Assembly: GCA_041394145.1 (NCBI GenBank)
Contig: JAWKIW010000002.1
Span: 379,252-443,251 of the forward strand
Reading direction: 5' to 3'
DNA from: Acidimicrobiales bacterium
GTDB taxonomy: Bacteria; Actinomycetota; Acidimicrobiia; Acidimicrobiales; Acidimicrobilacustridaceae
DNA length: 64,000 nucleotides
Positions 1,148 through 40,144 of the stretch are shown piece after piece. How positions within the stretch are numbered: the first letter of the stretch is position 1; each line of letters starts with the position of its first letter. The position numbers and the translations under genes are program-made. The notes under the pieces are model-generated. The model did not search any database and was not told the DNA's origin. It saw only the letters and a program-made list of their open reading frames with translations.

Positions 1148-1466
1148 CGGCGGCCGCCGGGGCCGCCACCTCGGGTCGCCCGGCGCCGTTCTCGATGGGA
1201 TCGGTGTCGCAGGCCGGTCGGGATCCCATCGAGAACACGGGAACGGGCGGACGCGCCGGAGGTCGCGAGGCCCCGAAACGGGACTTTCGGCCGTCTTGTC
1301 AACACCAGGTCGCTGGGTTACCGTTCGGTACGTTACCGGGGGGTAACTTCGTGCCCGGAGGCGATCCGGGCCCCGGACACCCCACCGCACCGGCGCACCG
1401 ATCGGGCCGATCACCCAGCGCCCAGGCCCTCGGACCCCACTCGCATCGCACAAGGAGCCGTGCCCA

Positions 1467-2699
1467 ATGTCCGACGTGTCGTTCCAGCTGAACGAGGACC
1501 AGCTCACCCTGCAGAAGTGGGTCCACGACTTCGGCGAAGAGGTCATCCGCCCGGTCGCGGCCGAGTGGGACGAGAAGGAGGAGTTCCCCTGGCCGGTGGT
1601 CGAGGAGGCGGCCAAGGTCGGCCTCTACGGCATGGACTTCATGGCTCAGATCATGATGAACGACCCGACCGGGCTCTCGATGCCGGTCGCCACCGAGGAG
1701 CTGTTCTGGGCCGACGCCGGCATCGGCCTGGCGATCATGGGCTCGGGCCTCGCCGCCGCCGGCATCCTCGGCAACGGCACCCCCGAGCAGATCATGGAGT
1801 GGGTCCCGCAGTGCTACGGCACCCCCGACGACGTGAAGCTCGGGGCGTTCTGCGTGTCCGAGCCCGACGCCGGCTCCGACGTGTCCTCGCTGCGCACCAA
1901 GGCCGTCTACGACGAGGCCAAGGACGAGTGGGTCCTCAACGGCACCAAGGCGTGGATCACCAACGGCGGCATCGCCGACGTCCACGTGGTGGTCGCGGCC
2001 GTCGACCCCGAGCTGAAGGGCCGCGGCCAGGCCAGCTTCGTGGTCCCGGCCAACACGCCCGGCCTGTCGCAGGGCCAGAAGTACTCCAAGCTCGGCATCC
2101 GGGCGTCGCACACCGCCGAGGTCGTGCTCGACGACGTGCGGGTGCCCGGCAGCTGCCTGCTCGGCGGCAAGGAGAAGCTCGACGAGAAGCTGGCCCGTGC
2201 CCGTGAGGCGCTGAACAACCCGGGCAAGGTGTCGAGCGGCAAGCAGCCGGCCATGGCCACCTTCGAGGCCACCCGCCCCGCCGTGGGCGCCCAGGCCATC
2301 GGCGTCGCCCGCGCCGCCTACGAGTACGCCCTGCAGTACGCCACCGAGCGCGTCGCCTTCGGCAAGCCGATCGTGATGCACCAGGGCGTGGGCTTCATGC
2401 TCGCCGACATGGCCACCGAGATCGACGCCGCCCGCCTGCTGGTGTGGCGGGCCGCGTGGATGTCGCGCAACAGCCAGTACAAGAACGCCGAGGGCTCGAT
2501 GTCCAAGCTCAAGGCCGGCCGCGTGGCCGTGTGGGTCACCGAGCGGGCCATCCAGATCCTGGGTGGCTACGGCTACGTCAAGGAGTACCCGGTCGAGCGC
2601 TGGCACCGCGACTCGAAGATCTACGACATCTTCGAGGGCACCGAGCAGATCCAGCAGCTGGTGATCGCCCGGGCCATCTCCGGCCTGCGCGTCGAGTAG
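1467..2699 (+). CDS. acyl-CoA dehydrogenase (FAD-dependent)
   Basis: 410-aa ORF with ACAD hallmarks: N-terminal helical domain, central beta domain, and the C-terminal YDIFEGTEQIQQLVIARAISG motif. The last 79 bp lie inside the attL direct repeat. Confidence 0.9.
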   Translation: MSDVSFQLNEDQLTLQKWVHDFGEEVIRPVAAEWDEKEEFPWPVVEEAAKVGLYGMDFMAQIMMNDPTGLSMPVATEELFWADAGIGLAIMGSGLAAAGILGNGTPEQIMEWVPQCYGTPDDVKLGAFCVSEPDAGSDVSSLRTKAVYDEAKDEWVLNGTKAWITNGGIADVHVVVAAVDPELKGRGQASFVVPANTPGLSQGQKYSKLGIRASHTAEVVLDDVRVPGSCLLGGKEKLDEKLARAREALNNPGKVSSGKQPAMATFEATRPAVGAQAIGVARAAYEYALQYATERVAFGKPIVMHQGVGFMLADMATEIDAARLLVWRAAWMSRNSQYKNAEGSMSKLKAGRVAVWVTERAIQILGGYGYVKEYPVERWHRDSKIYDIFEGTEQIQQLVIARAISGLRVE

Positions 2700-2774
2700 C
2701 TCTGACCTGCGCTTTCTTCTGTCAGAGGCCCGCTCACCCGAGCGGGCCTCTGTCGTTGTCGAACCCGGGATCGG
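2621..2774. repeat. attL: 154-bp direct repeat (copy 1) = ACAD 3' end + terminator hairpin
   Basis: Aligned by eye to 34905-35058 with 7 mismatches in 154. Contains two perfect 39-bp blocks, ctacgacatcttcgagggcaccgagcagatccagcagct and gtgatcgcccgggccatctccggcctgcgcgtcgagtag. Confidence 0.8.
2724..2753 (+). terminator. stem-loop (13-bp perfect stem, 4-nt loop) downstream of ACAD; part of att repeat
   Basis: cagaggcccgctc-accc-gagcgggcctctg. A second copy at 35008-35037 has loop accg. No T-tract, which is common in high-GC actinobacteria. Confidence 0.6.
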
Positions 2775-2778
2775 CGTC

Positions 2779-2799
2779 CATCCCTACTCCCATCCCTAC
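2779..2799. promoter_or_regulatory. tandem CATCCCTAC arm-type repeats adjacent to attL (putative integrase arm-binding sites / int promoter region)
   Basis: catccctac at 2779-2787 and 2791-2799, immediately inside the element and 22 bp upstream of the int ATG. A near-identical pair occurs at 34779-34798 next to attR. Confidence 0.5.
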
Positions 2800-2821
2800 T
2801 TTTCACGTAGGGTCTTCAGCC

Positions 2822-4330
2822 ATGGCAACGATCCGGCAGCGCAAGCGCGGTGTCTGGGAGGTCCGGGTGTTCGCCGGGCGCGACGCCCAGGGCAAGCCCG
2901 TCCAGGTCTCCCGTACGGTGCGCGGCGGCAAGAAGGATGCCGAGCGGGTGGCGAGCGAGCTCGAGCTCAAGCCGAGCCGGCCCGACGCCCGCCGGACCGT
3001 CGCCGAGCTCCTCGACGAGTGGCGCGCGCTCAAGGAGGCCAGCTGGGCCCCCTACACGCGCCGAGACCAGGAGAGCCGGTCGCGATCGATCGCCGCCGAT
3101 CGGATCGGGAAGGTCCCCGTCGCCCGGCTGCAGGTCACCGACGTCGATGCCTGGATCGTCCGCCTCCGCAAGGCCGGGGTCGGCGAGGGATCGATCCGCA
3201 ACCAGTTCCAGTCGCTGCGGTCGGCACTGGCCCAGGCGGTCCGTTGGGGGTGGATCGCACAGAACCCGGCCGCGCTGGCGAGCTATGAGCGAGCGAAGCG
3301 GACCTCGCGCGATGTGATGTCCGCCGAGGACGTCCAGGCCGTGCTCGAGGCCGCCGAGCAGGTCAACGAGATGGCGCCGGTCGCGATCCGACTCGCGGCG
3401 ATCACCGGTGCCCGCCGCGCCGAGCTCGCGGCGCTGCGGTGGACCGACCTCGACGGCTCCGTGCTCCGGGTCGACAGCGCCATCACGGTGGTCCGGGAAG
3501 GCTCGGGTGACGATCGGCGGACCGTCCTGCGTGACGATCCGACCAAGACCGCCGACCGTCGACGGGTCGCGCTCGACCCGTCGACCGTGGCCATGCTCGA
3601 AGTGCTGCGGGCCAGGCGTGAGCCCTACACACCGTGGATGTTCAGCGACACGGAGAAGGCTCCCCGCCCCGACCGGATCGGGTACTGGTGGCAGCGTTGC
3701 CGCGAGCTCGCCGGCATCGACGTCGAGTGGCGCCTGCACGACCTCCGCCACTGGTCGGCGACGTTCGCGCTCAGCGAGGGCTACGACGCCGCCACGGTCG
3801 CACATCGGCTTGGGCACTCGGACCCATCGACGACGCTGCGCGCCTACGCCCACGCCAGGGCGCAACGAGACGCCGACCTGGCGTCGAGCCTCGCCGATGC
3901 CTTGGAGATCCCCCCGAACCCGGGTAGCGCCCGCCACGGCGGCGAGGGCCTGTGGCCGGCCGGCGGGACCGATCCCGGGACCGACTGCGGGACCTCGTCC
4001 GACATCCGTTGGTCCGCCCGCGCCGACCGAGTGCCCTCCGGGTCTTGGAGCATGGCGACGCCCGAAAGGCCCGTTGACCTGGGAACGGGACCTTGCTCGG
4101 GACCGAGTACGGGAGTCCCGCCGAGGTCCCGTTGTCGACGCTGCCTGGTCCGCTCCGACGGCCGTCGGTTGAAGGAGATGCCCCGTTTCGGGACCGGAAG
4201 CGTGTCAGCTGCCACCTCACGGCCACGTGGCACGATCTCGAACCGGCGTTCGGCCCGTTGGCGAGACGGTGATCTGGGACACCTCGGCGGTGTGTTCGGA
4301 GACGGATTGCCGCGACCGGGCGGGCGGTAG
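2822..4330 (+). CDS. int: tyrosine integrase (phage-type, N-terminal AP2-like arm-binding domain); catalytic core ends ~3900, ORF reads on to 4330
   Basis: Starts MATIRQRKRGVWEVRVFAGRDAQGKP. The R...HDLRHWSATFALSEGYDAATVAHRLGHSDPSTTLRAYAH motif contains the catalytic Tyr. The C-terminal ~130 aa are a low-complexity GT[DG]-rich extension. Confidence 0.85.
   Translation: MATIRQRKRGVWEVRVFAGRDAQGKPVQVSRTVRGGKKDAERVASELELKPSRPDARRTVAELLDEWRALKEASWAPYTRRDQESRSRSIAADRIGKVPVARLQVTDVDAWIVRLRKAGVGEGSIRNQFQSLRSALAQAVRWGWIAQNPAALASYERAKRTSRDVMSAEDVQAVLEAAEQVNEMAPVAIRLAAITGARRAELAALRWTDLDGSVLRVDSAITVVREGSGDDRRTVLRDDPTKTADRRRVALDPSTVAMLEVLRARREPYTPWMFSDTEKAPRPDRIGYWWQRCRELAGIDVEWRLHDLRHWSATFALSEGYDAATVAHRLGHSDPSTTLRAYAHARAQRDADLASSLADALEIPPNPGSARHGGEGLWPAGGTDPGTDCGTSSDIRWSARADRVPSGSWSMATPERPVDLGTGPCSGPSTGVPPRSRCRRCLVRSDGRRLKEMPRFGTGSVSAATSRPRGTISNRRSARWRDGDLGHLGGVFGDGLPRPGGR
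3964..4207. repeat. cluster of >=7 CGGGACC/GGTCCCG heptamers in the integrase 3' extension
   Basis: cgggacc is seen at 3964, 3976, 3988, 4086, 4099 and 4199, with the inverted form ggtcccg at 4126. Confidence 0.35.
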
Positions 4331-12558: not shown

Positions 12559-14091
12559 ATGGCGAAGAGGTCGAAGGTGGAGTTGTACAGGCAGATCCGC
12601 AAGACCCGCGAGCGTGAGCAGCTCGGGATCCGGGCGTTGGCGCGCCGGTTCGGGGTTCATCGCCGCGCGATGTGCGCCAGGCGTTGGCGTCGGCGGTGCC
12701 GCCGCCGCGCAAGCCGTGCAGCGGGCGTCGCCGGTGCTGGATCGGTGGAAGCCGATCATCGATGGCTGGTTGGAGGCCGACCGGGCGGTGCCGAAGAAGC
12801 AGCGGCACACGGCCCGGCGGGTGTGGCAGCGGCTGGTCGCCGAGCACGGCGCCGAGATCGGCGAGTCGACCGGTGCGCCGCTTACGTGGCGGCGTGGAAG
12901 CCGGCAGCAAGGCGCTGGTGGAGGTGGCGGTGCCCCAGACCCATCCGCTGGGCGCGGAGGCCGAGGTGGACTTCGGGGCGGTCAGCTTCTATCTCGACGG
13001 GGTGCTGTGTGAGGGCCACATGTTCGTGATGCGCTTGTCGGCGTCGGCCAAGGGGTTCCATCAGGTGTATCCGAACGAGGCCCAGCAGGCGTTCCTCGAT
13101 GGCCATGTCCGGGCCTTCGCCCATTTCAGTGGGGTGCCGGGCCGGGTGCGCTATGACAACTTGAAGCCGGCGGTGGAGCGGGTGCTGCGGGGCCGGGACC
13201 GCGCCGAGTCCGAACGGTTCAGTGGCGCTCGCATTCGCCACTACAGGTTCCGACTCGATTGTTCTTCTGTCAGCCCGGCCCCGACGGCGCCCGCCCAGAA
13301 GGTGGCGTGGAAGGAGAGGTGGGCCGGTTCCGTCGCCGTCACCTGGTCCCGATGCCCAACGTCGCCTCGTTCGCCGAGCTCAACGACCTGATCGCGGCCG
13401 CCGACGCCGCCGATGACGCCCGCTGGGTGGCGGGTCGACGCCTCAGCGTCGGTGACCACTTCGCCCTGGAGGCCCCACGCTGGGGTGCCTGCCCGACGAG
13501 GCGTTCGACCCGGCGTTGATGCTGCGGCCCCGGGTGGACACGAAGTCCCGGGTGTGTGTGCGTCAGTGCTTCTACTCAGTGCCGGTGCGCTACGTCCGGG
13601 CGACGCATCGATGTGCGTCTGGGCGCCGACACGATCGAGGCGCTCGACGGGCCCCGGGTGGTGGCCACCCACCCCGGTTGTTGGCCAAAGGCACCGAGAG
13701 CTTGGTGCTGGACCACTACCTGGAGGTGCTACGGCTCAAGCCCGGGGCGCTGCCAGGCGCCACCGCGCTGGCTCGAGCCCGGGCGTCGGGCGCGTTCAGC
13801 GCCGACCACGAAGACGTATTGGTCCGCGGCCCGCCGACGCCTCAACGGCGCCGGCGCACCCAGGCCCTGATCGAGGTCCTGCTGGCCGCAGGCCCTGCCC
13901 GCCGACGCCGTGCGCGCCGGGATCCGAGCGGCGCTACGGATCCCGGTTCAGTCGACCCCGCCATCGTCGTCGTCGGTGCCCGACGAGCCCTCGAGGACCA
14001 CGACGCACGGTCGTGGCGATCGGTAATCGCCCGCTACGACCGCCCACCGCCGACGATCGCCCACTACGACCAGCTCCTGGAGGCCCGATGA
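12559..14091 (+). pseudogene. istA: IS21 transposase IstA (HTH + DDE), multiple frameshifts
   Basis: MAKRSKVELYRQIRKTREREQLGIRALARRFGVHRR is the N-terminal HTH. GHMFVMRLSASAKGFHQVYPNEAQQAFLDGHVRAFAHFSGVPGRVRYDNLKPAV is the catalytic core. C-terminal pieces (VCVRQCFYSVPVRY..., HYLEVLRLKPGALPGATAL) lie in other frames. Confidence 0.7.
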
Positions 14092-14862
14092 ACACCGACA
14101 CCGCCGCCGGTGCCACCGTCGACGCCGCAGCCCGCGAGCTGCGCCTACCGGCGGTGCGCGACCACACGCCACGACAGCCGCCGAAGCCAAACGGGCCCGC
14201 TCCACCCACCTGGGGTTCCTCGCCGACGTGCTCACCGTCGAGGTCGACGACCGAGCCGAACGACGACAGGCCCGGCGCATCCACGAGGCGCACTTCCCGC
14301 GCCTCAAACGCCTCGCCGACTTCCGACCTCGACGCCGCCCCCACCGTGGCCCCCACCGACCTCCCCGCCACCCTCGCCGCCGGCACCTTCCTCGACGTCG
14401 GCGAACCCGTCGTGTTGCTCGGCGACTCCGGCACCGGCAAGACCCACCTGCTCATCGGCACCGGCCTCGCCGCCTGCGAAGCCGGACGACGAGTCCACCG
14501 CCACCTGCGCACAACTCGTCAACGAACTCGTCGAAGCCGCCGACGAACGCCGCCTCGCCCGCCTCGTCGCCCGCTACGGCGCCGCCTCGACCTGCTGTGC
14601 GTCGACGAGCTCGGCTACGTCCAACTCGACAGCCGCGGCGCCGAGCTGTTGTTCCAAGTGCTCACCGAACGAGACGAACGAGCATCCGTGGCCGTCGCGT
14701 CCAACCTCCCCGTTCAGCGAATGGGGCCAGATCATCACCGACGCCCGCCTCGTCGCCGCCGTCATCGACCGGCTCACCTTCAACGCCCACATCATCGAAA
14801 CCGGCACCCGCTCTACCGTCTGCGCGCCAGCAGCCGCACCCGTCACCAACAAGACCGCCTGA
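14088..14862 (+). pseudogene. istB: IS21 helper ATPase IstB, frameshifted
   Basis: Starts MNTDTAAGATVDAAARELRLPAVRDH. Walker A VLLGDSGTGKTHLLIG. LDLLCVDELGYVQLD and DRLTFNAHIIETG lie in shifted frames. Confidence 0.65.
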
Positions 14863-15320
14863 ACGCCCCGAACATCCGCACCCGTCACCCACCCGACCCG
14901 ACCCGAGAGGCTCTACGGGCCACACAGCAGCCAGTTCCTCGGCTCGACGCCGACCGAAGGGGTGGGGCCAAATCAGACGAGCACGGTGGGGCCAATCCAG
15001 GTTGACATTCCCGGCAGAGCGCCGAAGGGGCCGATAGGCCCGGCTTCATAACCATCGGGGACACCGTCGAGGGTCGGAAATCGACACGGCGGCTCCGGCT
15101 GCCGATACTGCCTCTCGGTGGGGCGGCTCGTCGGCCCGGGAGGCTGTCATGGATGCCGGTACCGCCATGTCCCTGCGCTCGCGCTCAGTGAGCCTTTGCA
15201 CTGCTGATGATCCAGCGGAGGTAGCTGCCGCCGGGTTCCTGGCCCGCTACGGGACGGACCCTCAGTCGTATCATTCATGACCTGCGGGTCTTCCAGTGGG
15301 CGGCTGACGCTCGCATCGAC

Positions 15321-20607: not shown

Positions 20608-21651
20608 ATGAACCAGTTCCCGTGTTTGATCCGTTCGTCGTCGCCCGGTGGGGAGGCCCGCTTCGCCCTGGGTGATCCGCTCGTGGACGCCTACCTCGAG
20701 TTCGTCGCGGGCCGGGCCCGACCGAACACGTTGCGGGCGGTCGCCCATGACTTGAAGACGTTCTTCACGGTGATCGACAAGGCGCCCGCGGCGGTGGTCA
20801 CCGCCGATGTGTTCGACTTCCTCGCTGACCAACGTGGTGACCGCACCGTGATCCGTCTGTCTGATCGCGAGTCGGGGTTGTCGGCTCGCACGATCGCCCG
20901 GCGGTTGTCGTCGGTGTCGGGCTTGTACGCGTATCTGATCGCTCGGGGCGACACCGGCGTGGACACCAACCCGGTGCCGCGTGGCCTGTCGACCCGGCGG
21001 CGAGGCGGACGCACCCAGATCGTGCCCCTGGTGCGGGTGCCGCGCACCCTGCCCAAGATCTTGTCGCCCGCCGAGGTGAACGCACTGGTGGGTGCGCTGC
21101 GCACCCACCGGGACCGGGCGATGGTGTTCGCGATGGTGCTGGGAGGACTGCGCCGCTGCGAGGTCCTCGGTCTGCGCCTGGCCGACATCCGCGTGCCGGA
21201 CCGGTCGGTGTTCATCGCCGAAGGCAAGGGCGGCCACCAACGCATCGTGCCGATCAGCAACCCGTTCTTCGCGGCGGTCGGCCACTACCTGCGCTCGGAA
21301 CGACCCGCGGTGGACACCGACCGCGTCTTCGTCACCTTGAAGGGCCCCACCCGGGGGCACCCGATGACCCCCGACGGCATCGACAAGATCCTCCAGGCTG
21401 CCCGCCGACGCGGCGGGCTGGAACGGGCGACGTGTCACCAGCTGCGCCACACCTGCCTGACCCGCCTGCGCGAAGCCGGCATGGCCCTCGAAGCGGTCCA
21501 GGCCCAGGCCGGGCACGTCTCGATCGAGTCGACCCGGATCTACCTGCACCTCACCAACGACTGGCTCGCCAACGAATACCGGCGGGCCAGCGAACGCATC
21601 GACGCCGACCACACCGCCGAGCTCCTCGAGGCTCAGGAGATCAACCGATGA
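20608..21651 (+). CDS. tyrosine recombinase (XerC/D-like integrase), intact
   Basis: 347 aa. Catalytic-domain motifs present: LRRCEVLGLRLADI, HQLRHTCLTRLREAGMALEAVQAQAGHVSIESTRIYLH (the Y is the nucleophile). Confidence 0.85.
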   Translation: MNQFPCLIRSSSPGGEARFALGDPLVDAYLEFVAGRARPNTLRAVAHDLKTFFTVIDKAPAAVVTADVFDFLADQRGDRTVIRLSDRESGLSARTIARRLSSVSGLYAYLIARGDTGVDTNPVPRGLSTRRRGGRTQIVPLVRVPRTLPKILSPAEVNALVGALRTHRDRAMVFAMVLGGLRRCEVLGLRLADIRVPDRSVFIAEGKGGHQRIVPISNPFFAAVGHYLRSERPAVDTDRVFVTLKGPTRGHPMTPDGIDKILQAARRRGGLERATCHQLRHTCLTRLREAGMALEAVQAQAGHVSIESTRIYLHLTNDWLANEYRRASERIDADHTAELLEAQEINR

Positions 21652-27164: not shown

Positions 27165-28493
27165 TCAACCGGATGAGGTGTCGTCGTGGTCGCTCGGCCC
27201 GTTGCCGTGAGGGAGCTCGTCAACGACGGCGGGTCGAAGGTTGTTCTCCTTGATGAAGCGCAGTCGCTGTTGCGCTCGTTGTCGCGCCATGACGCGGTCT
27301 TGGCCGTGTTCGACGGCGGCAACCCCTGCAGAGAAGGTGACCGGCCGTCCCGCTATCAGGCGTCGATGGTGGTGGTCGTCGAGAAGAGCGCGCAGCCGCC
27401 GGGTGAGCTCGTGCTCGTCGAGGTTGGGGACAGCCACGACGAACTCGTCGCCGCCCCAGCGGCCGACCTGACCTTCGGGGTCGACGTCGCCCAGCAGGCG
27501 CGCCACGGTGCACAGGGCCTGGTCGCCGGCGTCGTAGTTGTCCGCCGTGGCGTTGAAGCCGCGCAGGTCGTCGAGATCGACGAACGCCACCGCGAACGGG
27601 ACAGGCAAAGCGTTGAGCGCCCGTTCGGTCCCGACGCGGTTCAACACGCCGGTGAGCCCATCGTGGTCGGCGCGTTCCTCCGCGTCGGACAGTCGACGCC
27701 TGAGATCCCGGATCTCGGCCTGCGTGCCCCGCACCGAGACCCCGGCGGTGGCTTCGAGGTGCTCGAGGCGCTGCACCAGCGGCACGAGGCGCTCCCAACG
27801 GGCGTCACTTCGGGCGGCCCACAAAGCGTTGGCATGGGTCGGTGACGGCCCCGCCCGCGGCGTGACCTGCAGCTCGATCGCCACGCAACGGTCCCCGAGG
27901 TCGACGTCGCCACCGCAACCGGCACGGATGCGGCGAGCCAACTGGGTGACGCCGTCGGCGGGCAGCCGGTCGACGAGCACGGCCAGCTCGCTGGGGCCCA
28001 CCCGACCGACGGTGACCGCGTCGGCGACGGTGGCATGCAGGCGGCGGGCCAGCTCGTCGAGGACACGGTCACCCACCTCGCGGCCCACATCCCGGTTGAG
28101 GTGGCGCAACCCGACCAGGTTCACCAGCGCCACCCCGTACGACAGCCGGGTCCCGGCCGATCGGGCCCGCCCGTCGACCTCGGCCAGCCGCTGGAGGAAC
28201 ACGACCTCGGAATCCCACGGCTCATCGCCCCGCGCCACTCCGACAGTATTGCCCTCGCTCCAAGCCCGCACCGAGGCGACCGACGAAGTGTCAACGGCTG
28301 CTCCCCGAACGCCGGCTATGTGCGCGACAACTACGGCGAGCTCCACGTCTGGTTCGCACGGTGGTGCGTCGTAGCTGTCCGAGACGTGAACCTGGCCCGG
28401 GACTCGGTGGCCTCGTGGTCCGTAGCGTTCCCGACGGCGACCTCCCTGACATCGCCGACTGCTGGCCGACGTGGCCGACCAGGCGCAACGCAC
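27165..28493 (-). CDS. diguanylate cyclase: degenerate N-terminal GGDEF-like domain + coiled coil + canonical GGDEF domain
   Basis: C-terminal domain DGLTGVLNRVGTERAL...VAFVDLDDLRGFNATADNYDAGDQAL...GRWGGDEFVVAV. N-terminal region SYGVALVNLVGLRHLNRDVGREVGDRVLDELARRL lacks GGDEF. GTG start 12 bp after upstream stop. Confidence 0.75.
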   Translation of the reverse strand: MRCAWSATSASSRRCQGGRRRERYGPRGHRVPGQVHVSDSYDAPPCEPDVELAVVVAHIAGVRGAAVDTSSVASVRAWSEGNTVGVARGDEPWDSEVVFLQRLAEVDGRARSAGTRLSYGVALVNLVGLRHLNRDVGREVGDRVLDELARRLHATVADAVTVGRVGPSELAVLVDRLPADGVTQLARRIRAGCGGDVDLGDRCVAIELQVTPRAGPSPTHANALWAARSDARWERLVPLVQRLEHLEATAGVSVRGTQAEIRDLRRRLSDAEERADHDGLTGVLNRVGTERALNALPVPFAVAFVDLDDLRGFNATADNYDAGDQALCTVARLLGDVDPEGQVGRWGGDEFVVAVPNLDEHELTRRLRALLDDHHHRRLIAGRPVTFSAGVAAVEHGQDRVMARQRAQQRLRFIKENNLRPAVVDELPHGNGPSDHDDTSSG

Positions 28494-31615: not shown

Positions 31616-34154
31616 GTGGAGGTTCGTGTCGTGTTGAACATCGGGAAGCTGGCGGCGGGCAAGGCCGGCTACTACGTGTCGCTGGCTGCTGGGGTCGAGG
31701 ACTACTACACTGACACGGCGAACCTCCGCCGAGCCCGACGGCGCCGAGCTGCTCGGCTTGGCCATTGCCGGCACCGTGACGGCCGACGATCTGGTCACGG
31801 TGCTGGGTGGGCGGGCGCCGGGGACTGGCGAGCGGCTGACGGGCTCGGGTGGCGGGGTTCGATCTGGACGTTCCGGGCGCCGAAGTCGGTGTCGTTGCTG
31901 TACGGGTTGGGCGAGGCCGACACGGTCGCCGGCGTGGTGGTCGATCGCGCGACGAGGCGGCTGTGGACGCCGCGGTCGGCTACCTCGAGCGGGCCGCCTG
32001 GTGCGACCCGCCGCCGGGTCGACGGGACGATCACCCGGTTCGCGGGGAGGGGTCTGCTGCGGCCGGGTTCGGCACCAGACGTCGCGGCGGGGACCCGACC
32101 CTGCACACCCACGTGCTGGTGGCGAACATGACCTGCACACCCGGCGGCCGGTGGGGGCGCTGGACGGGCGACGGGTCTACGAGCACGCCTTGATCGCCGG
32201 CTACTTCTACCAGGCCCAGCTGCGGGCCGAGCTGATCCGCCGCCTCGGCGTCGAGTGGGACTGCGGTCAACGGCTGTGCCGACGTCGCCGGTGTCGACGA
32301 CGGGGTGATCGCCGCGCCTTCCGGCGGCGCGCCGAGATCCTCGAACGTCTGACCAGCGCGGCCAGCGGTCGGCCCGGCGCAGGCGGCCACGCTCGACACC
32401 CGCCGCGCCAAGGACTACCGCCACGGCCGGGTCGACGCCACCGAGCTGCGGAGCCGCGGGCCGAACGCGGCGACCGGGTCGGGTTCGGACCGGCACAGGT
32501 GGCCGGGTTGTCGACGCCGGCGTCCGACGAACCCTCCTCCCTGGCCCAGGTCGGCGACATCTTCCGCGATCTGGCCGGCCCCGACGGGCTCACCAAGCAC
32601 AAGAGCACCTTCACCCGCCCCGACGTGCTGCGAGCGTTCGCGTCGGCGCTGCCCGACGGCGCCGACGTCGCCGCCATCGAAGACCTCGCCAGCTTCTACC
32701 TGTTCGCCACCGAACCGGTCGCAGTCGGTGACGTGCACGGCGCCGAGGCGTGGACGACCCAGGACCTCCTCGACACCGAACGACGGGTGCTCGCCGGCAT
32801 CGCCGCCCGCCGACACGCCGGCACCGGCATCGCCGACCGGGCCGAGGTGGCCGCCGCCATCGGTGCCCGGCCCACCATCGGTGACGAGCAGGCCGACATG
32901 GTCGCCGACCTGTGCCTGGCCGGACACGGCGTCGACGTCGTGGTGGGTGCCGCCGGCACCGGCAAGACCTTCGCCCTCGACACCGCCCGCGTCGCTTGGG
33001 AGCGCTCCGGGTACCGGGTCCACGGCGCCGCCCTGTCGGCGCGGGCCGCCGCCGAGCTGCAGGCCGGCTCGGGCATCGAGTCGACCACGATCGCCCGGCT
33101 GCTCGGCCAGATCGACGCCGGCCGGACCCGACTCGATACCCGGGCGGTCGTGGTCGTCGACGAAGCCGGCATGGTCGGCACCCGGACCCTGGACCGGCTC
33201 CACCAGGCGACCTCGGCCGCCGGCGCCAAGCTGGTGCTCGTCGGTGACCCCGCCCAGCTCCCCGAGATCGACGCCGGCGGCGCCTTCGCGGCGCTCACCG
33301 AACGCCTCGACCCGATCCGCCTCGTCGACAACCGCCGCCAGGTCCACCACTGGGAACGCGGCGCCCTCGACGACCTGCGCTCCGGCCGGATCGCCGCCGC
33401 CGTGGCCACCTACCAGCAACGGCAGCGCATCGTGGTCGTCGCCGACCCCGACGAGCTGCACACCCGCGTCGTCCAAGACTGGTTCGCCTCCCACCAGGCA
33501 GGGGACCAGGCGCTCATGGTCGCCGCGCACCGCGCCGAGGTCCGAGACCTCAACCAACGAGCACGCCAGCTGCTCGACGACGCCGGCCTCCTCGGCCCGA
33601 CCCGCCTACGGGTCGGCGGCCACGAGTTCGCCGAAGGCGACCGGGTCATGGCCGTCGGCCGCAACCACTACGACCTCGACATCCTCAACGGCGACCTCGG
33701 CACCATCACCGGCATCGGACCCAACGGCGACATCACCTTCCACGCCGACCGAACGGCCGAGCCACGCACGATGCCCGCCGCCCGCATCGAAGCAGGCTTC
33801 CTCGACCACGGCTACGCCCGCACCAACCACAAGACCCAAGGCGCTACGGTCGACCGCACCTTCATCCTCGGCGACGACGGCGACCTCGACCGCCAAGCCG
33901 CCTACGCCGCCCTGTCCCGGGGTCGCATCGAGAACCGCCTCTACGTGCCGGACCCCGACGACGACCTCCTCCTGGACACACCAGCTGCCTCCCCGATCCA
34001 CGAGCACGTCACCTACGAGCTGTCCCGCGACCGATCCCAACGCCTCGCCACCGACCACCTCGACGCCCAGGCCGGCCGCGCCGACGACCTGGACGCCCAC
34101 CTGCCCCACGCCCACCCCGATCCCGAACCCACCGTCGACAACGACCTCTGGTGA
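31616..34154 (+). CDS. MobF-family conjugative relaxase (TrwC/TraA N-terminal relaxase + RecD-like helicase); relaxase domain split over 3 frames
   Basis: MEVRVVLNIGKLAAGKAGYYVSLAAGVEDYY (YY/DYY motif), WTFRAPKSVSLLYG, DPTLHTHVLVANMT (HxH motif), WRALDGRRVYEHALIAGYFYQAQLRAEL, helicase motifs GAAGTGKTF, VVVDEAGMV, LVGDPAQLP. Confidence 0.85.
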
Positions 34155-34184
34155 GCTGTCGAGCGGCCTGAGCGGACCGTCGCC

Positions 34185-34440
34185 TTGCGTCGGCGGGGCT
34201 GGTGGAGCCGCCTGGTACCGTGCCGGTGTGGCGCTGCGCCGAGACGACCTGACCCTGAGCAGCTGGAGCTCCAGCGGGCGCTGGATCGATCGTGGACCGA
34301 GGCCCAGCGGGGGCTCGCCGACCCGGAGTTCCGGGCCTACCTCGAGGACTCGATGCGCCGGCTCGATGCCAGGGAGCCGGCCCCGATGCTCACCCGCGAG
34401 GAGTTCCTGGCGCAGACCAGGATCCTCGACCAGCAGTGCC
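34185..34440 (+). CDS. putative antitoxin (ParD/Phd-like C-terminal motif); start/stop unclear
   Basis: ...ELQRALDRSWTEAQRGLADPEFRAYLEDSMRRLDAREPAPMLTREEFLAQTRIL. Duplicated outside the island at 35097-35313. Confidence 0.3.
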
Positions 34441-34448
34441 CCTCCGAG
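34232..34448. repeat. ~215-bp direct repeat, element-internal copy (antitoxin-like region)
   Basis: gaccctgagcagctggagctccagcgggcgctggatcgatcgtgg... about 92% identical to 35097-35313. Confidence 0.6.
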
Positions 34449-34711
34449 ACGTCGAGGAGTTCCACCGCTGGATCGAGCGGGAGTCCCTGTCGATCGCGGC
34501 CCAGCGAGTCGCCCGCCACTCTCGCCGAGGTCGGCGACGAGGCCTGGCGATCACCGAGTGTCCCGGTCGAAGCCCTTTCGAACCAACCGGAGTACGAAGT
34601 GCGCGAGAGGTCGCCCTTCCTGCCGAGGGCGACGACCGGCCGGTCCGGCTCTGGTACCGCCACATCTACGCCACGGACGCTGTCGATGTCATCGCCGTCA
34701 CCAACCGGTGA
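34437..34711 (+). CDS. putative ParE/RelE-superfamily toxin (GTG start overlapping antitoxin frame)
   Basis: VPLRDVEEFHRWIERESLSIAAQRVARH...RPVRLWYRHIYATDAVDVIAVTNR-stop has ParE-like motif spacing. Low confidence. Confidence 0.3.
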
Positions 34712-34778
34712 CCGCGCCGTCGAACCGGATCGAGCGTCTCCCGATCGGCGGCGATCGATCGCTCGCAGGCCCCCGATC

Positions 34779-34798
34779 CATCCCTACTCCATCCCTAC
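34779..34798. promoter_or_regulatory. tandem CATCCCTAC arm-type repeats adjacent to attR
   Basis: catccctac at 34779-34787 and 34790-34798, 106 bp inside attR. Mirrors the attL-proximal pair. Confidence 0.5.
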
Positions 34799-34904
34799 AA
34801 CTGCACGACACAGGCCCACATCGGCTGGTACGGGCCGACACAAACCTCGGGAAAACCGCAGGTCAACGGCACAATCGCGCACTGGCTGGACAAGCAGGTC
34901 AGAC

Positions 34905-35058
34905 CTACGACATCTTCGAGGGCACCGAGCAGATCCAGCAGCTCGTGATCGCCCGGGCCATCTCCGGCCTGCGCGTCGAGTAGTCCTGACCTGCGCGTTC
35001 TTCTGTCAGAGGCCCGCTCACCGGAGCGGGCCTCTGGCGTTGTCGGACCCGGGATCGG
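34905..35058. repeat. attR: 154-bp direct repeat (copy 2), displaced ACAD 3' fragment + hairpin
   Basis: Encodes ...YDIFEGTEQIQQLVIARAISGLRVE-stop with no upstream gene body. Hairpin at 35008-35037. Confidence 0.8.
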
Positions 35059-35096
35059 TCCTGTCCCGCGGGCGCTCGGGTAGCGTGCGTGCGTGG

Positions 35097-35313
35097 CGCG
35101 GCGTCGAGACCGCTTGACCCTGAGCAGCTGGAGCCTCCGGCGGGCGCTGGATCGATCGTGGGCCGAGGCCCAGCGGGGCTCGCCGACCCGGAGCTCCGGG
35201 CCTACCTCGAGGACTCGATGCGCCGGCTCGATGCCAGGGGGCCGGCCCCGCTGGTCACCCGCGAGGAGCTCCTGGCGCAGACCGAGGTCCTCGACGGGTA
35301 GTGCCCCTCCGAG
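35097..35313. repeat. ~215-bp direct repeat, chromosomal copy just outside attR
   Basis: Same sequence with two compensating 1-bp indels. The antitoxin-like ORF ends with TAG here. Confidence 0.6.
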
Positions 35314-35443
35314 ACGTCGAGGAGCTCGGCCACATCATCAGGGACGGCGGTCCCGAGGACGTCGAACGCCTCCACCGAGCCGAGCGGCGGCCCCGCTGGA
35401 CCCGACCATCCTGCGTGTCACACGCCCTCGTCATGATGGGAGC

Positions 35444-37177
35444 ATGGTCGAGGGATCGGGGTTCTCCGACGTGTCGCTGGAGCTGGTCGGTGCCGTCGGG
35501 GGCATCGTCGGTGCAGCAGCCGTGGACCCGGCGTCGGCGTCCGACGAGGACCTGTGTGCGGCGATGGTGACGTTGGAGGGGGTGCGGCGGGCCGTCGACG
35601 CCCTGCAGGCGCGGGTGGTGGCCGAGGCCGACGCCCGCGACGTGTGCAACCTCGCCGACGGGCTGTCCACGGCGCGGTGGCTCGCCCGCGAAGCCGGCCT
35701 GGCCGGGGCGACGGCCAAGCAGCGGGTCAAGGTCGCCAACGTCCTGTGTCGCCACCTCGACGTCGTCCACCAGGCACTGGCCGACGGTCGCATCTCGTGG
35801 GACCACGCCCGGGTGCTGGCCGATCTGGTGAACCCCCGTGTCGTCGACCAGGTCGTCGCCCTGCAGGGCGAGCTGGTGGCGCTGGCGGAGCTGTGCGGGT
35901 TCGAGCGGTGGCGCCGCGAGGTCACCGCCGTCGTGGCCCGGTTGGACCACGACGGTGGCTACGACCCCGCCGCGGACCTGGCGCGGAACCGGCTGCGGGT
36001 CGGACCGGTGCTGGGCGGCGTCGCCGACGTGTCCGGCTCGTTGACCGGTGACCACGCCGTGCTCGCGGCGCACGCCATCGACACCGTCGCCGACGAGCTG
36101 TTCCACCGCTACCGCCGCGACCACGACCAGTGCCCCGACATCGAGGTGCCGTCGCGGGCGACCTTGCGGGCACTGGCCCTGGTCGAGCTGTGCCGCCGCG
36201 GCCTCGCCACCGACCCCCGCTCGTCCACGCCGCCGCGGCCCGAGATCGTGGTCGTCACGCCGGCGTCGGATCCCCTCGATGCCGATGCGCTCGCCGATGC
36301 GGCCACCCTCGACGGTGTGCCGTTGCCGGACGGCACGATGCGGCTGCTGGCCTGTGACGCTGCCTGGCGGGCGCTGATCGTGGACCACCTCGGCGTCCCG
36401 TTGGACCTGGGTCGCCGCGTCCGGTTCGCCACCCCCGACCAACGGCTGGCACTGGCCGTGCGCGACGGCGGCTGCGTCTTCCCCGGCTGTGACGCCCCAC
36501 CGTCGTGGTGCGACGCCCACCACCTCGACGAGTTCGTCCGCCACCGCGGCCACACCGATCTCGTTCGGCTCGCCCTGCTGTGCCGCCACCACCACGGCGT
36601 CACCCACCGCCGGGGCTGGACGATGCGGTCCACGGGCGACGGGTGGTTCCGGTGGCAGACGCCGACCGGCCGCACCCTCCACTCCCAACGCCACGGCCGC
36701 CGACGAGCCGGTGCCGATCCCCGGGGAGGCCGGCCACCACGAGCGCCACGCACCACCGACCACCTCGGGCCGCGCGAGATGGCCTGCACCTCCACCACCC
36801 TCTGTGCCACCGCTCCCATCACCGCCACGGTGCCCTCGAGTGGCGTGGCGACAGGTGCTCGTCGGGTCGCGACGCGCACCTGGTCGACTCCGGCGGTGCC
36901 GCCGCTCGTCGGCGTCAGGCGGGGTCGAGCACGAAGAGCGGGATCACCCGCTCGGTGGCCGCCTGGTAGCTGTCGTAGTCGGGCCAGACCGCAGTGGCGC
37001 GGGCCCACCACGTCGACTTCTCGTCGCCGTGCACCTCCCGAACCGTGTAGTCGCCGAGGACGTCGCCGTCCTGGAGCCGCGCGACGGCGTTGGCGCGGAC
37101 GTTGTGCACCCACTGCGGGTTGGTCGGCGCACCACCCATCGAGCCGACCACGGCGTAGCGGCCCTCGCCGTCGCTGA
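35444..37177 (+). CDS. DUF222 + HNH endonuclease protein (REP13E12-like); real C-terminus probably ~36.75 kb, ORF reads through to 37177
   Basis: MVEGSGFSDVSLELVGAVGGIVGAAAVDPASASDEDLCAAMVTLEGVRRAVDALQARVVAEAD. C-terminal HNH GGCVFPGCDAPPSWCDAHHLDEFVRHRGHTDLVRLALLCRHHHGVTHRRGW. Confidence 0.7.
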   Translation: MVEGSGFSDVSLELVGAVGGIVGAAAVDPASASDEDLCAAMVTLEGVRRAVDALQARVVAEADARDVCNLADGLSTARWLAREAGLAGATAKQRVKVANVLCRHLDVVHQALADGRISWDHARVLADLVNPRVVDQVVALQGELVALAELCGFERWRREVTAVVARLDHDGGYDPAADLARNRLRVGPVLGGVADVSGSLTGDHAVLAAHAIDTVADELFHRYRRDHDQCPDIEVPSRATLRALALVELCRRGLATDPRSSTPPRPEIVVVTPASDPLDADALADAATLDGVPLPDGTMRLLACDAAWRALIVDHLGVPLDLGRRVRFATPDQRLALAVRDGGCVFPGCDAPPSWCDAHHLDEFVRHRGHTDLVRLALLCRHHHGVTHRRGWTMRSTGDGWFRWQTPTGRTLHSQRHGRRRAGADPRGGRPPRAPRTTDHLGPREMACTSTTLCATAPITATVPSSGVATGARRVATRTWSTPAVPPLVGVRRGRARRAGSPARWPPGSCRSRARPQWRGPTTSTSRRRAPPEPCSRRGRRRPGAARRRWRGRCAPTAGWSAHHPSSRPRRSGPRRR

Positions 37178-37364
37178 TGCGGACCAGCGGCGTCTTGCGG
37201 ACCTTTCCGGACTTCGCCCCGAGCGTCCAGAGGACGATCCACTGCTCGCCGACGATCTCGCTCGGCTCGGTCCCACCGGTCCGCTCGTAGCGTTCGACCT
37301 CCTCGGCGATCGGTGCCCAGGGGCTGGGCTCGTACTCGGCATCGAACGCTTCGAACCCTGACAT
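36915..37364 (-). CDS. nitroreductase-family deazaflavin (F420H2)-dependent oxidoreductase, DUF385
   Basis: MSGFEAFDAEYEPSPWAPIAEEVERYERTGGTEPSE...TLGAKSGKVRKTPLVRISDGEGRYAVVGSMGGAPTNPQWVHNVRANAVARLQDGD...YQAATERVIPLFVLDPA. Confidence 0.75.
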   Translation of the reverse strand: MSGFEAFDAEYEPSPWAPIAEEVERYERTGGTEPSEIVGEQWIVLWTLGAKSGKVRKTPLVRISDGEGRYAVVGSMGGAPTNPQWVHNVRANAVARLQDGDVLGDYTVREVHGDEKSTWWARATAVWPDYDSYQAATERVIPLFVLDPA

Positions 37365-37548
37365 CGCGGCCTCCTCGCTGCGGCTCCGGCGCCCCCTGGC
37401 ACGACGGCAGGAACGGGGCGTCCCGGAGGCGCAACGTAGCCGCCTCGACCGGCCGGGCACCGAACCCGACGAGTGCCACGGGGTCGTTCAGCACTACCCG
37501 GGCGCCGCGTCGTCGGCCTACGGTGCAGCGAGGGCACGGGGAGGCGAG

Positions 37549-38520
37549 ATGCAGGCGATCGTCCGTCGCGAGTACGGCTCGGCACAGGTCTTGGAGCTGA
37601 CGGACGCCGATCGGCCCGTTCCCGAGGACGACCAGGTGCTCGTGCGGGTGCGGGCGTCGTCGGTCAACCCCTACGACTGGCACGCCATGACCGGGTTGCC
37701 GCAGTTCATGCGGCTGATGACCGGTCTGCGCCGGCCGAAGGTGGCGGCGCTGGGCGCCGACCTGGCCGGCGTGGTCGAGGAGGTCGGTCCGGCGGTGCAC
37801 GACCTCCGCCCCGGCGACGAGGTCTTCGGCGAGGTCGAGGAGGGCGCGTTCGCCGAGTACGTGGGCGCGGCGGCCGACGTGGTGGCACCCAAGCCGGCCG
37901 GCCTCACCTTCGAGCAGGCGGCGGCCGTGCCGATGGCCGGGGTCACGGCACTGCAGGCGCTCCGTGACCACGGACGGGTGCGACCCGGCCACGCCGTGCT
38001 CGTCAACGGTGCATCGGGCGGTGTGGGCACCTTTGCCGTGCAGCTGGCGCGGCACCTCGGTGCCGAGGTCACCGGGGTCTGCAGCACGCGCAACGTCGAG
38101 CTGGTCCGGTCCCTCGGTGCCGCCGAGGTCGTCGACTACACGCGCGACGACTTCACCCGCGGCGGCCCGCGCTACGACGTGATCCTCGACCTCATCGGGA
38201 ACCGCTCGACGAGGGAGTGCCGGCGGGTGCTCGCTCCCAAGGGCGTCTACATCGCGTCGTTCGGCCAGCCGGAGCACCGGGTGCTCGGCCCGCTGGGGCG
38301 CCTGGCCGGGATGCTGGTGGTCTCGCCGTTCGTCGGCCACACCCTGACCACGTTCGTGTCGAAGCCGAACCGGCCCGACCTGGTGCTGCTGGCGGACCTC
38401 CTCGAGCGCGACGAGGTGACCCCGGTCATCGACCGCACCGTCGCCCTGGGCGACCTCGCCGACGCCATGGCCCACGTGGCGGCCGGTCACGCCCGTGGCA
38501 AGGTCGTCGTGACGATCTGA
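37549..38520 (+). CDS. NAD(P)H quinone oxidoreductase / zinc-type alcohol dehydrogenase (MDR superfamily)
   Basis: VLVRVRASSVNPYDWHAMTG and LVNGASGGVGTFAVQLARHLGAEVTGV (Rossmann). GGAGG-like RBS upstream. Confidence 0.85.
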   Translation: MQAIVRREYGSAQVLELTDADRPVPEDDQVLVRVRASSVNPYDWHAMTGLPQFMRLMTGLRRPKVAALGADLAGVVEEVGPAVHDLRPGDEVFGEVEEGAFAEYVGAAADVVAPKPAGLTFEQAAAVPMAGVTALQALRDHGRVRPGHAVLVNGASGGVGTFAVQLARHLGAEVTGVCSTRNVELVRSLGAAEVVDYTRDDFTRGGPRYDVILDLIGNRSTRECRRVLAPKGVYIASFGQPEHRVLGPLGRLAGMLVVSPFVGHTLTTFVSKPNRPDLVLLADLLERDEVTPVIDRTVALGDLADAMAHVAAGHARGKVVVTI

Positions 38521-38633
38521 CGTCCGAGCCGGAGCCCGAGCCCGGGCGAGGGTCGGGAGGCGGGGGCGCGGCGGGGCGTTGTTCCCTACTCGGCGCCCCC
38601 TCGTCGTCGCACCATCGGGCTAGGAGCAAGGCG

Positions 38634-40144
38634 ATGTATCCCGTCCACACGAACCCCGATGGTTCGCGCTACCGGTGGGACGGCGAGCAGTGGGTGCCGT
38701 TGCCACCCGAGCGGCAGGGCCCGCGAGGCCTGGTGTTCGGCATCGTCGTGGTGACCGTGGCCCTGATCGCCTTCGTGATGGTCGGGCTGGCGGGCAACGC
38801 GGTCTACCAGCGGGTCACCTCCGGCGGTTCGACGACCACCGCGGCGCGGCCGACCACGACCCGCGCCGGGCAGAGCACCACCACGACGAGCCGCTCGACG
38901 GACCGCACCCCGGCGCCAGACCGCGACGGGGAGGCGGCACAGGCCGACGAGAGCTTCTTCGTGACCTTCCTGCCCGAGCTGCGGTCGGCGAAGGCCCCGT
39001 CGTGGGTGCAGCAGGGCACCCGCATCACCTACTACTCGGCCGCCGCCTCGGTCCCGCAGTCGTACCACCGCTACGTCGAGGACGAGGAGGGCGGCTGGAT
39101 CGACCCGACCACCGGCGACAAGTACCGACGGGAGGACATCCAGAGCGCCGCGGGGCACGGCTACAACGAGATCAACGTGACGGCCCTGAACGACGCGGTG
39201 GTGGCCCTCAACATCCGGGCCTACGGGCTGCAGGACGTCGATCGGTCGAGCCCGGTCACCACCCTCACCTGGAGCGGGGCGGTCGGGCTCCCGGGAGCGG
39301 GGTCGGACTGGTGGCTCGCTCCGGAGGTGCTCGCCGGCATCGAGGAGACGGTCACCTCCGACCTCAAGATCGTGCGCATGCCCTACACCGCCGAGGGCAC
39401 GACCTACTCGTCGATCTGGATCCAGTCCCTCAGCGACCGCGGCAACCACACGTGGGTCTACGACCTCGACTCCGGGGTGCTGCTGCACACCGCCAGCTCG
39501 ACCCAGGGGCCGCCGATCACCGGTCCGGTCGCCCGAGGTGAGGGCCGTGAGGGCTCGACGTTCCTGACCACCAGCACGATCGTGAACACCCGCCAGCTGT
39601 CGATGCCGTGGGTCGGCTCCTCGGCGCCGTCGTGGATCGGCTCGAGTCCCACTTCGACTACCAGGGCACGGTCACGGCCGAGGTCGGGTCGCCCATCCCG
39701 CTCGACGCCACCGTGGCCATCGACCGCAAGGCGTCCGGGTCGGACTGGGCCCGCTACACCTACGCCCGGACGCTGTACTCGACCGTCGCTCCGTCGGTGA
39801 CCGAGGGCTTCGAGCGCGTCGACGGCCCCGGGCAGGTCGGCGGCCTGTTCCTGCCGCCGGACGCCATCGGTGACCTGCGGGCCGGCGACGACCTCGACCA
39901 CGACCCGGTGACGAACGTCGACGTCTCCGTCGCCGCTGTCGATCCGGGGTCGACGGTGACGATCCGCGAGTCCGGCCAGGGCGAGGTGTCCGAGCTCACC
40001 TACGACGCCCGGTCCGGGCTCCTGGTCGCCTGGTCGTACCAGAACCCGTACCAGTACCAGCGCCACGACTTCCGGCTCACCGGCCAGGGCGCGCGGCAGC
40101 GGGCCTGCGCCACGCCGACACCGGGTGGCCGGCGAGCACGGTGA
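38634..40144 (+). CDS. hypothetical membrane-anchored secreted protein; apparent frameshift ~39.61 kb
   Basis: MYPVHTNPDGSRYRWDGEQWVPLPPE, a TM segment FGIVVVTVALIAFVMVGL, and a Thr-rich linker. The body continues in ORF 39608..40144. AGGAG RBS at ~38620. Confidence 0.55.

Follow-up and report, generated by a model that had tools for sequence, protein, structure and literature searches.

Integrative and conjugative elements (ICEs), like integrative and mobilisable elements (IMEs), can decay to remnants flanked by attachment (att) sites, the cis-mobilisable elements (CIMEs), after which a new element may enter the att site that holds the target gene's end (PMC5704250). In accretion of the ICESt1/ICESt3 type, the decayed remnant lies in tandem with the newer element, at the same att site in a gene 3' end, and is devoid of integration and transfer genes (PMC5704250). 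Here we describe a similar arrangement in a 64,000-nt stretch of the genome of an Acidimicrobiales bacterium (assembly GCA_041394145.1, contig JAWKIW010000002.1, positions 379,252 to 443,251; hereafter, the window), where a cassette of two small genes, denoted A69 and T91, resides just inside the right end of a 32-kb integrated element, and the 5' half of a second copy lies just outside. We consider it about 60% probable that the outside copy is a relic, left by tandem accretion and decay, of an earlier, related element, the inside cassette being toxin-antitoxin (TA) cargo of the present element. The locus would then be a clean natural example of integrative elements that decay to an addiction cassette and pile up at one att site, with nothing in it that is unexpected for the biology of mobile elements.

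The cassette itself is best compared with type II TA modules, such as RelBE, YefM-YoeB, ParDE and PaaA2-ParE2. It shares with these modules a small upstream gene followed by a gene for a protein of about 90 amino acids (aa), with overlapping stop and start codons, as well as a predicted RelE/ParE-type fold, carriage by mobile elements, and toxin-first decay that leaves orphan antitoxin genes.

The repeat on both sides of the right att site

An acyl-CoA dehydrogenase gene (1467-2699) carries the 32-kb element in its 3' end, and the element is edged by a 158-nt direct repeat, the two copies of which are 95% identical (features of the window given below are on the plus strand unless noted otherwise). 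The repeat is made up of the final ~80 nt of the dehydrogenase gene and 75 nt downstream, so that the left copy, attL (2617..2774), comprises the 3' end of the gene and a downstream segment that includes a hairpin, and the right copy, attR (34901..35058), carries a 27-codon copy of the dehydrogenase C-terminus. A tyrosine integrase gene (2822..3898; Pfam Phage_integrase, E 2.4e-18) lies to the right of attL, starting at a distance of 48 nt, and at the opposite end the element encodes a TraA/TrwC(MobF)-type relaxase-helicase (31616..34154). Direct repeats of the form CATCCCTACTCC(C)ATCCCTAC just inside both element ends (CATCCCTACTCCATCCCTAC at 34777..34798, with the second copy at 2777-2799 beside attL) are probable arm-type binding sites of the integrase. 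No type IV secretion system domain was detected among the ten large open reading frames (ORFs) of the element that were tested, and the element may be either an ICE or an IME.

Two direct repeat copies flank attR, namely, R2a (34214..34462), located inside the element after the relaxase gene, and R2b (35079..35327), which begins 20 nt past attR. They are offset by 865 nt and are identical in 225 of the 250 alignment columns (90%), with two 1-nt indels; the identity reaches 92% in a 153-nt core, and perfect tracts common to both are up to 45 nt long. The preliminary description of this DNA, made by reading the sequence, had recorded a repeat of ~215 bp and ~92% identity across attR, which is real and is only extended here. 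Because the two copies in a second assembly cross-match with blastn E values of 1e-87 to 1e-92, the repeat is not a chance similarity. Scans for promoter and terminator consensus sequences over 34100-35500 returned nothing.

The repeated sequence corresponds to the 5' half of a discrete cassette of ~540 bp that consists of a ~45-nt leader, A69 (69 aa) and T91 (91 aa). Inside the element, a conserved leader (34189..34227, containing ...GGAGCCGCCTGGTACCGTG...) is followed by the 69-codon antitoxin-like A69 (34228..34436) and the 91-codon T91 (34436..34711), which encodes a toxin-like protein with a predicted RelE/ParE fold. Outside, the leader (35059..35092, TCCTGTC...GGTAGCGTG) starts at the first base after att and is followed by a second antitoxin-like gene, A69' (35093..35301), and by a T91 remnant (35301..35327). 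The antitoxin-like peptides of the preliminary description are present in both copies, and so is the antitoxin-like gene, the start of which we move, judging by the 69-aa homologues, to GTG 34228 and GTG 35093, respectively. The GTG-initiated ORF inside the element likewise exists as described, and outside, homology to it ends after eight codons (VPLRDVEE, 35301-35324), with the last homologous position at 35327.

An independent assembly, GCA_029781665.1, contains two contigs, L001 and L026, that are 97-99% identical to the window (97.2% for L026); L001 carries a 98.6% identical copy of the integrase gene. The gene order in L026 is that of the window, namely, relaxase, A69, T91, attR, A69' with the eight codons, a gene encoding DUF222 and HNH-like regions (DUF222-HNH), an F420H2-dependent reductase gene and a zinc-dependent alcohol dehydrogenase gene. 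The recurrence of this layout in an independent assembly implies that the duplication is not an assembly artefact. A69, T91 and A69' are all intact ORFs in L026.

Judged against the cassette family and this sister assembly, all frames in the window are broken, contrary to the intact module that had been read at this locus from ORFs that turn out to be frameshifted pseudogenes. The inside A69 is 1 nt short at 34253 and reads CAG at 34434-34436, where the TAG stop should be; the inside T91 has lost 2 nt at 34521 and gained 2 nt at 34601, a pair of frameshifts that scrambles ~29 central codons; and the outside A69', a fast-evolving gene with 69 intact codons in L026, is frameshifted by indels at 35124, 35134 and 35176. 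Damage is also seen in the relaxase: compared with L026, its N-terminal (TrwC) domain contains 18 further small indels (31761-32535), many of them frame-restoring, which garble the HTHVLVAN histidine motif, and the next 1.6 kb of the gene has none. This cluster has arisen either because an immobilised element is decaying or because the assembly is locally wrong. Compared with the sister assembly, the indels are regional, with none in 1-3920, in 32535-34142 or after 35498, so that they do not represent uniform noise; in a comparison of 36445-40000 with an independent short-read contig, at most one indel was found. With the inside pair, the relaxase and the orphan A69' all disrupted in the lineage of the window, function is unlikely, and by sequence the locus is apparently dead here. 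Window and L026 diverge by ~3-4% from 31738 to ~35500 and by ~0.3% from there to 38387; the fast-diverging segment thus ends ~440 nt past attR and takes in the relic, so that its boundary is not the att site.

The A69-T91 cassette family

The cassette is conserved far beyond this locus. We identified 71 homologues of A69, nearly all of exactly 69 aa and none with a Pfam domain or a name (consensus MALRREDLTPEQLEHQRALDRSWAEAQRGLADPEFRAYLE.SIRRLDAKEPAP.LTREEFLAQTK.LDE), as well as 92 close homologues of T91, nearly all of 91 aa and again without a Pfam domain; an exhaustive profile search with T91 yielded 126 clusters at 50% identity, and most of the named sources were metagenome-assembled genomes (MAGs) of Acidimicrobiia. 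In a scan of one genome per species, in which a match was considered clear at a tblastn E value of 3e-13 or better, there were ~17 clear cassette loci, most of them in Acidimicrobiia MAGs (Iamiaceae, Microthrixaceae), with a few labelled just Actinomycetota or Actinomycetes and one Limnocylindria. Three further matches were much weaker, two of these coming from Pseudomonadota MAGs. In the window, the repeat is not the common dispersed one that would have counted against the preliminary reading: there are two copies and no more, yet the cassette is a widespread mobile cassette across Acidimicrobiia.

Conservation at the DNA level (73-86% identity) extends over ~520 nt, from the leader, with the consensus GGTCCTGTCGG.GGAGC.GC.TGGTACC.TGAGGCCGTG, to a point shortly after the T91 stop, and the sequences on either side are unrelated. 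The GTG start of T91 overlaps the A69 stop (TAGTG) in L026, in the outside copy, in another locus discussed below (L005) and in the majority of the 20 genome loci. The ratios of nonsynonymous to synonymous differences per site (pN/pS) are 0.15-0.34 for T91 copies and mostly ~0.2-0.3 for A69 pairs without the outside copy, two pairs with the orphan A69 of locus L004 reaching 0.46 and 0.61. By these ratios, the intact copies of the cassette are under purifying selection.

A structural model of T91 built with AlphaFold2 from the family alignment (predicted local distance difference test score, 89.9) has two helices followed by three strands. This predicted alpha-alpha-beta-beta-beta fold matches aRelE, RelE1, YoeB and ParE, which is what a member of the RelE/ParE superfamily should display. 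Among the T91 residues, E55 and R57 are conserved widely, and H76 and Y78 are conserved in the core family alone. As a toxin, T91 might act either by ribosome-dependent cleavage of mRNA or on gyrase. A69 is predicted to form three helices. We presume, as a lead only, that A69 resembles the short antitoxins PaaA2 and archaeal RelB that have no DNA-binding domain.

The pattern of gene damage in the family points in the same direction. T91 is cut short beside an intact A69 in three loci (after 19 codons in L004, 40 codons in L009 and 62 codons in L013) and contains a nonsense codon beside an intact A69 in two more (L006 and L007), and no T91 was detected beside the intact A69 of L010. The preservation of A69 in at least six loci where T91 is damaged or was not detected is the pattern expected of a toxin and its antidote and provides indirect support for this assignment. 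In L008, no A69 match was found beside one extra copy of T91.

Several results weigh against a TA assignment. Searches of Pfam and NCBIfam with the ORFs of the window and with the frame-corrected T91 gave no TA model, so that the check proposed in the preliminary description, a TA-family match for the two ORFs, came out negative, and the same outcome was obtained for 46-48 intact homologues and 42 distant relatives; ParE_toxin appeared below the threshold in 3 of the 46 members, with the best E value of 0.015. Profile searches of the PDB produced noise alone for both families, and a Foldseek search of the PDB with T91 returned nothing. No recognisable DNA-binding domain, whether ribbon-helix-helix, helix-turn-helix or Phd, was detected in A69, for which the fold search was uninformative. 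At the sequence level, A69 and T91 therefore differ from the described type II modules in falling outside every Pfam or NCBIfam TA family, and A69 differs also in being a predicted three-helix protein of 69 aa in which none of these DNA-binding domains is detectable.

These negative results, together with a histidine and a tyrosine that are invariant in the core T91 family and unconserved in the wider one, would fit two small proteins that regulate, for example, transfer or excision, T91 being a non-toxic derivative of the RelE-like fold. We regard this possibility as improbable, given the stop/start overlap of the two genes, the repeated loss of T91 with retention of A69, and the survival of the pair as the sole content of decayed islands. 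Based on the predicted fold, the operon architecture and the decay pattern, we infer that A69-T91 is a type II TA (addiction) module with a RelE/ParE-fold toxin that stabilises integrative elements of Acidimicrobiia. The TA-like character proposed earlier is thus upheld by fold and genetics, and not by hidden Markov model (HMM) searches, where no curated TA family matched. T91 would represent an unannotated family of the RelE/ParE superfamily (~126 clusters at 50% identity) that is missed by current HMM libraries. The T91 profile also matches P0290, a protein of 1643 aa, at 13 distinct places, with the best match spanning positions 40-76 of the profile; P0290 may be a repeat protein, or its ORF may have been called wrongly.

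Origin of the copy outside the element

At other loci, the cassette is typically found as cargo of tRNA-gene islands, and it often outlives these islands. Locus L018 consists of tRNA-Leu, a relaxase gene, A69 and a 24-nt att repeat. L005 (1115-2084) is an 885-bp mini-island that contains an intact A69-T91 alone and extends from tRNA-Leu(gag) to a 16-nt repeat of the tRNA 3' end; by its sequence, it is a candidate minimal cis-mobilisable element. In L009 (8338-11057), tRNA-Pro is followed first by a small TA-like pair and a 46-nt att repeat, then, 145 nt past this repeat, by A69 together with a T91 truncated to 40 codons, and finally by a convergent PIN/RHH-like pair; A69 and the truncated T91 thereby have the same position just outside attR as in the window. 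This accretion hot spot holds TA-like pairs only, the first of which is DUF433-like/DUF5615-like as read by eye from the translations.

In the window, the copies inside and outside the element are each other's nearest known relatives, with a DNA identity of 90.8% vs at most 87.9% to any other locus. Between the inside and outside A69, pN/pS equals 0.82. Of the 11 residues that differ, 8 have the family consensus in the inside copy and not in the outside one, where the changes include the near-invariant E11, F35, L55 and F60. Judging from these substitutions, the decaying copy is the outside one, in near-neutral evolution. Its leader is of the type found in L004 and L005 (GGTCCTGTC) and is not a copy of that inside the element. 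Between the dehydrogenase stop and the outside cassette lies exactly the segment that is present in the att site of the element, and at the orthologous dehydrogenase loci in five contigs of two other species, A69' is absent and the downstream intergenic DNA is unrelated.

This arrangement can be compared with ICE/IME accretion. As in a CIME, the outside copy lies in tandem with the element, at the same att site, and has no integrase or transfer genes, and the three-step route of integration, decay and second integration (PMC5704250) predicts the order seen in the window. A CIME keeps attL and attR, and in this respect the window differs: both are found around the cassette of L005, the CIME-like form, whereas the remnant in the window is missing the distal att and half the cargo, and is thus no longer mobilisable in cis. 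Under the accretion scenario, an earlier, closely related element or mini-island would have held the same att site and decayed by deletion until the addiction cassette alone was left beside att. The present element would then have integrated into the att copy that holds the gene end, with the result that the relic directly adjoins the new attR on its right side. A later deletion would have taken T91 past codon 8 together with the distal att of the relic, and the orphan A69' would have been drifting ever since. Of the three origins offered by the preliminary description, an earlier tandem element fits best, the accretion steps being inferred. As to a more complex right boundary, another of the three, the element ends at attR (35058), and the homology past 35058 is read as a relic rather than an extension of the element.

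The close relationship of the two copies and their disposition as direct repeats 865 nt apart are also compatible with duplication in situ, whereby the right end of the element (cassette, spacer and attR, an 865-bp unit) doubled after integration and the second unit was trimmed to 250 bp. This route appears rather improbable. The outside leader lacks GGCTGGTGG and has instead the form of L004 and L005, the repeat is 10% diverged compared to 5% for attL and attR, and the junction would need to sit exactly at the att end. Moreover, the same divergent outside copy is found in L026, so a duplication would have to be old.

An additional point in favour of duplication is a common patch with the same 1-nt deletion: at ~35111-35135, the outside copy in the window has inside-type bases and the deletion of the inside copy, and L026 differs there. 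This patch suggests gene conversion between the copies. Descent of both window copies from one ancestral frameshift was ruled out, both being intact in the sister assembly, and the shared deletion is accordingly specific to the lineage of the window, as a conversion patch or an artefact. Recombination between R2a and R2b would delete 865 bp including attR and could lock the element in place.

It is also conceivable that the outside copy belonged to the host, as a chromosomal A69-T91 module downstream of the dehydrogenase gene, next to which an element with a homologous pair landed by coincidence and which later lost its toxin. Chromosomal homologues of mobile TA modules are common (PMC2654758), and copies of the cassette are known outside any obvious element as well, such as that of L004, between P450 genes and a dehydrogenase gene. 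We nevertheless find a native module unlikely because the cassette is missing from the five orthologous contigs, the sequence from the dehydrogenase stop to the cassette is the att-borne part and is unconserved in the other species, the cassette leader abuts att with no chromosomal DNA in between, and most of the copies with a known context sit in tRNA-linked islands.

The presence of an antitoxin homologue next to an element that encodes the matching toxin resembles anti-addiction, as proposed for the chromosomal ccd module of Erwinia with respect to the ccd module of the F plasmid (PMC2654758). Here too, a chromosomal antitoxin homologue (84% aa identity in L026) is found beside the element, and the intact A69' of L026 could, in principle, neutralise the T91 of the element. 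The orphan A69' differs in its pN/pS, in the loss of near-invariant residues and in being frameshifted in the window; its near-neutral evolution argues against maintenance for anti-addiction. A broader proposal, that the leader, A69 and T91 together with att form a minimal, self-preserving, TA-only cis-mobilisable hitchhiker that would use the integrases of larger elements and gather at their att sites, with A69' serving as a host antidote that allows the resident element to be lost or tolerated, and A69-T91 as a new RelE-fold TA family specific to Acidimicrobiia whose antitoxin has no DNA-binding domain, is speculative and in our view doubtful.

Certain observations count against a relic left by accretion. 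To the right of the relic, the window contains no third att copy, so the relic model needs an extra deletion; neither a strain with an empty site nor one with the relic only was found, and no intermediate of the proposed series turned up in this species. Exact-protein look-ups with two flanking genes, in search of an element-free sister strain, returned only the same arrangement or short contigs, and the closest orthologues of the dehydrogenase are from other species and have a different downstream region. The clustered and often frame-restoring indels could, in part, be local errors of assembly or polishing, and the patch at ~35111-35135 could result from cross-mapping between the repeats.

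The DUF222-HNH neighbour and other genes of the element

The gene to the right of the outside copy, a neighbour that is not part of the cassette, encodes a DUF222 protein (35444..36799; Pfam DUF222, E 1.4e-20), its ORF starting from ATG 35444 and being open to 37177; an HNH-like motif was recognised by eye, and Pfam is silent on HNH. The frame overlaps a convergent gene for an F420H2-dependent quinone reductase (36915-37460, minus strand), and in L026 the DUF222-HNH gene contains a frameshift near codon 20.

In its DUF222 domain and HNH-like motif, this flanking gene resembles REP13E12, the DUF222-HNH repeats of mycobacteria, and the preliminary description had suggested REP13E12-like repeats on both sides of attR as a third origin. 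The gene in the window differs in being single-copy, in that the 250-bp repeat is no part of it and in that its relatives have no upstream cassette: it is the only DUF222-HNH gene in the window and lies outside the element, none of 40 loci encoding DUF222-HNH relatives contains the cassette, and no DUF222-HNH gene is present within the 10 kb around 20 cassette loci. On these counts, REP13E12-like repeats on both sides are rejected. We also considered DUF222-HNH as a repeated element that truncated the toxin by insertion and rejected this option, its relatives having no cassette nearby; a leftover 3' part of T91 past the HNH gene is missing from the window. Even the nearest relatives in the metagenome collection do not exceed 48% identity, which prevents a boundary of such an element from being drawn at the DNA level.

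Other cargo of the 32-kb element includes an IstB-like ATPase, a second tyrosine recombinase (Phage_integrase, E 1e-32) and a GGDEF protein (coordinates for the set: 13413-15002, 20608-21648 and, on the minus strand, 27168-28493). The two ends of the element also share short inverted matches: a 22-nt segment of the spacer near attR (34741-34762) perfectly matches the integrase gene (3082-3103), and the right end of att (35042-35061) has a 20-nt inverted copy of 95% identity just past the integrase gene (3966-3985).

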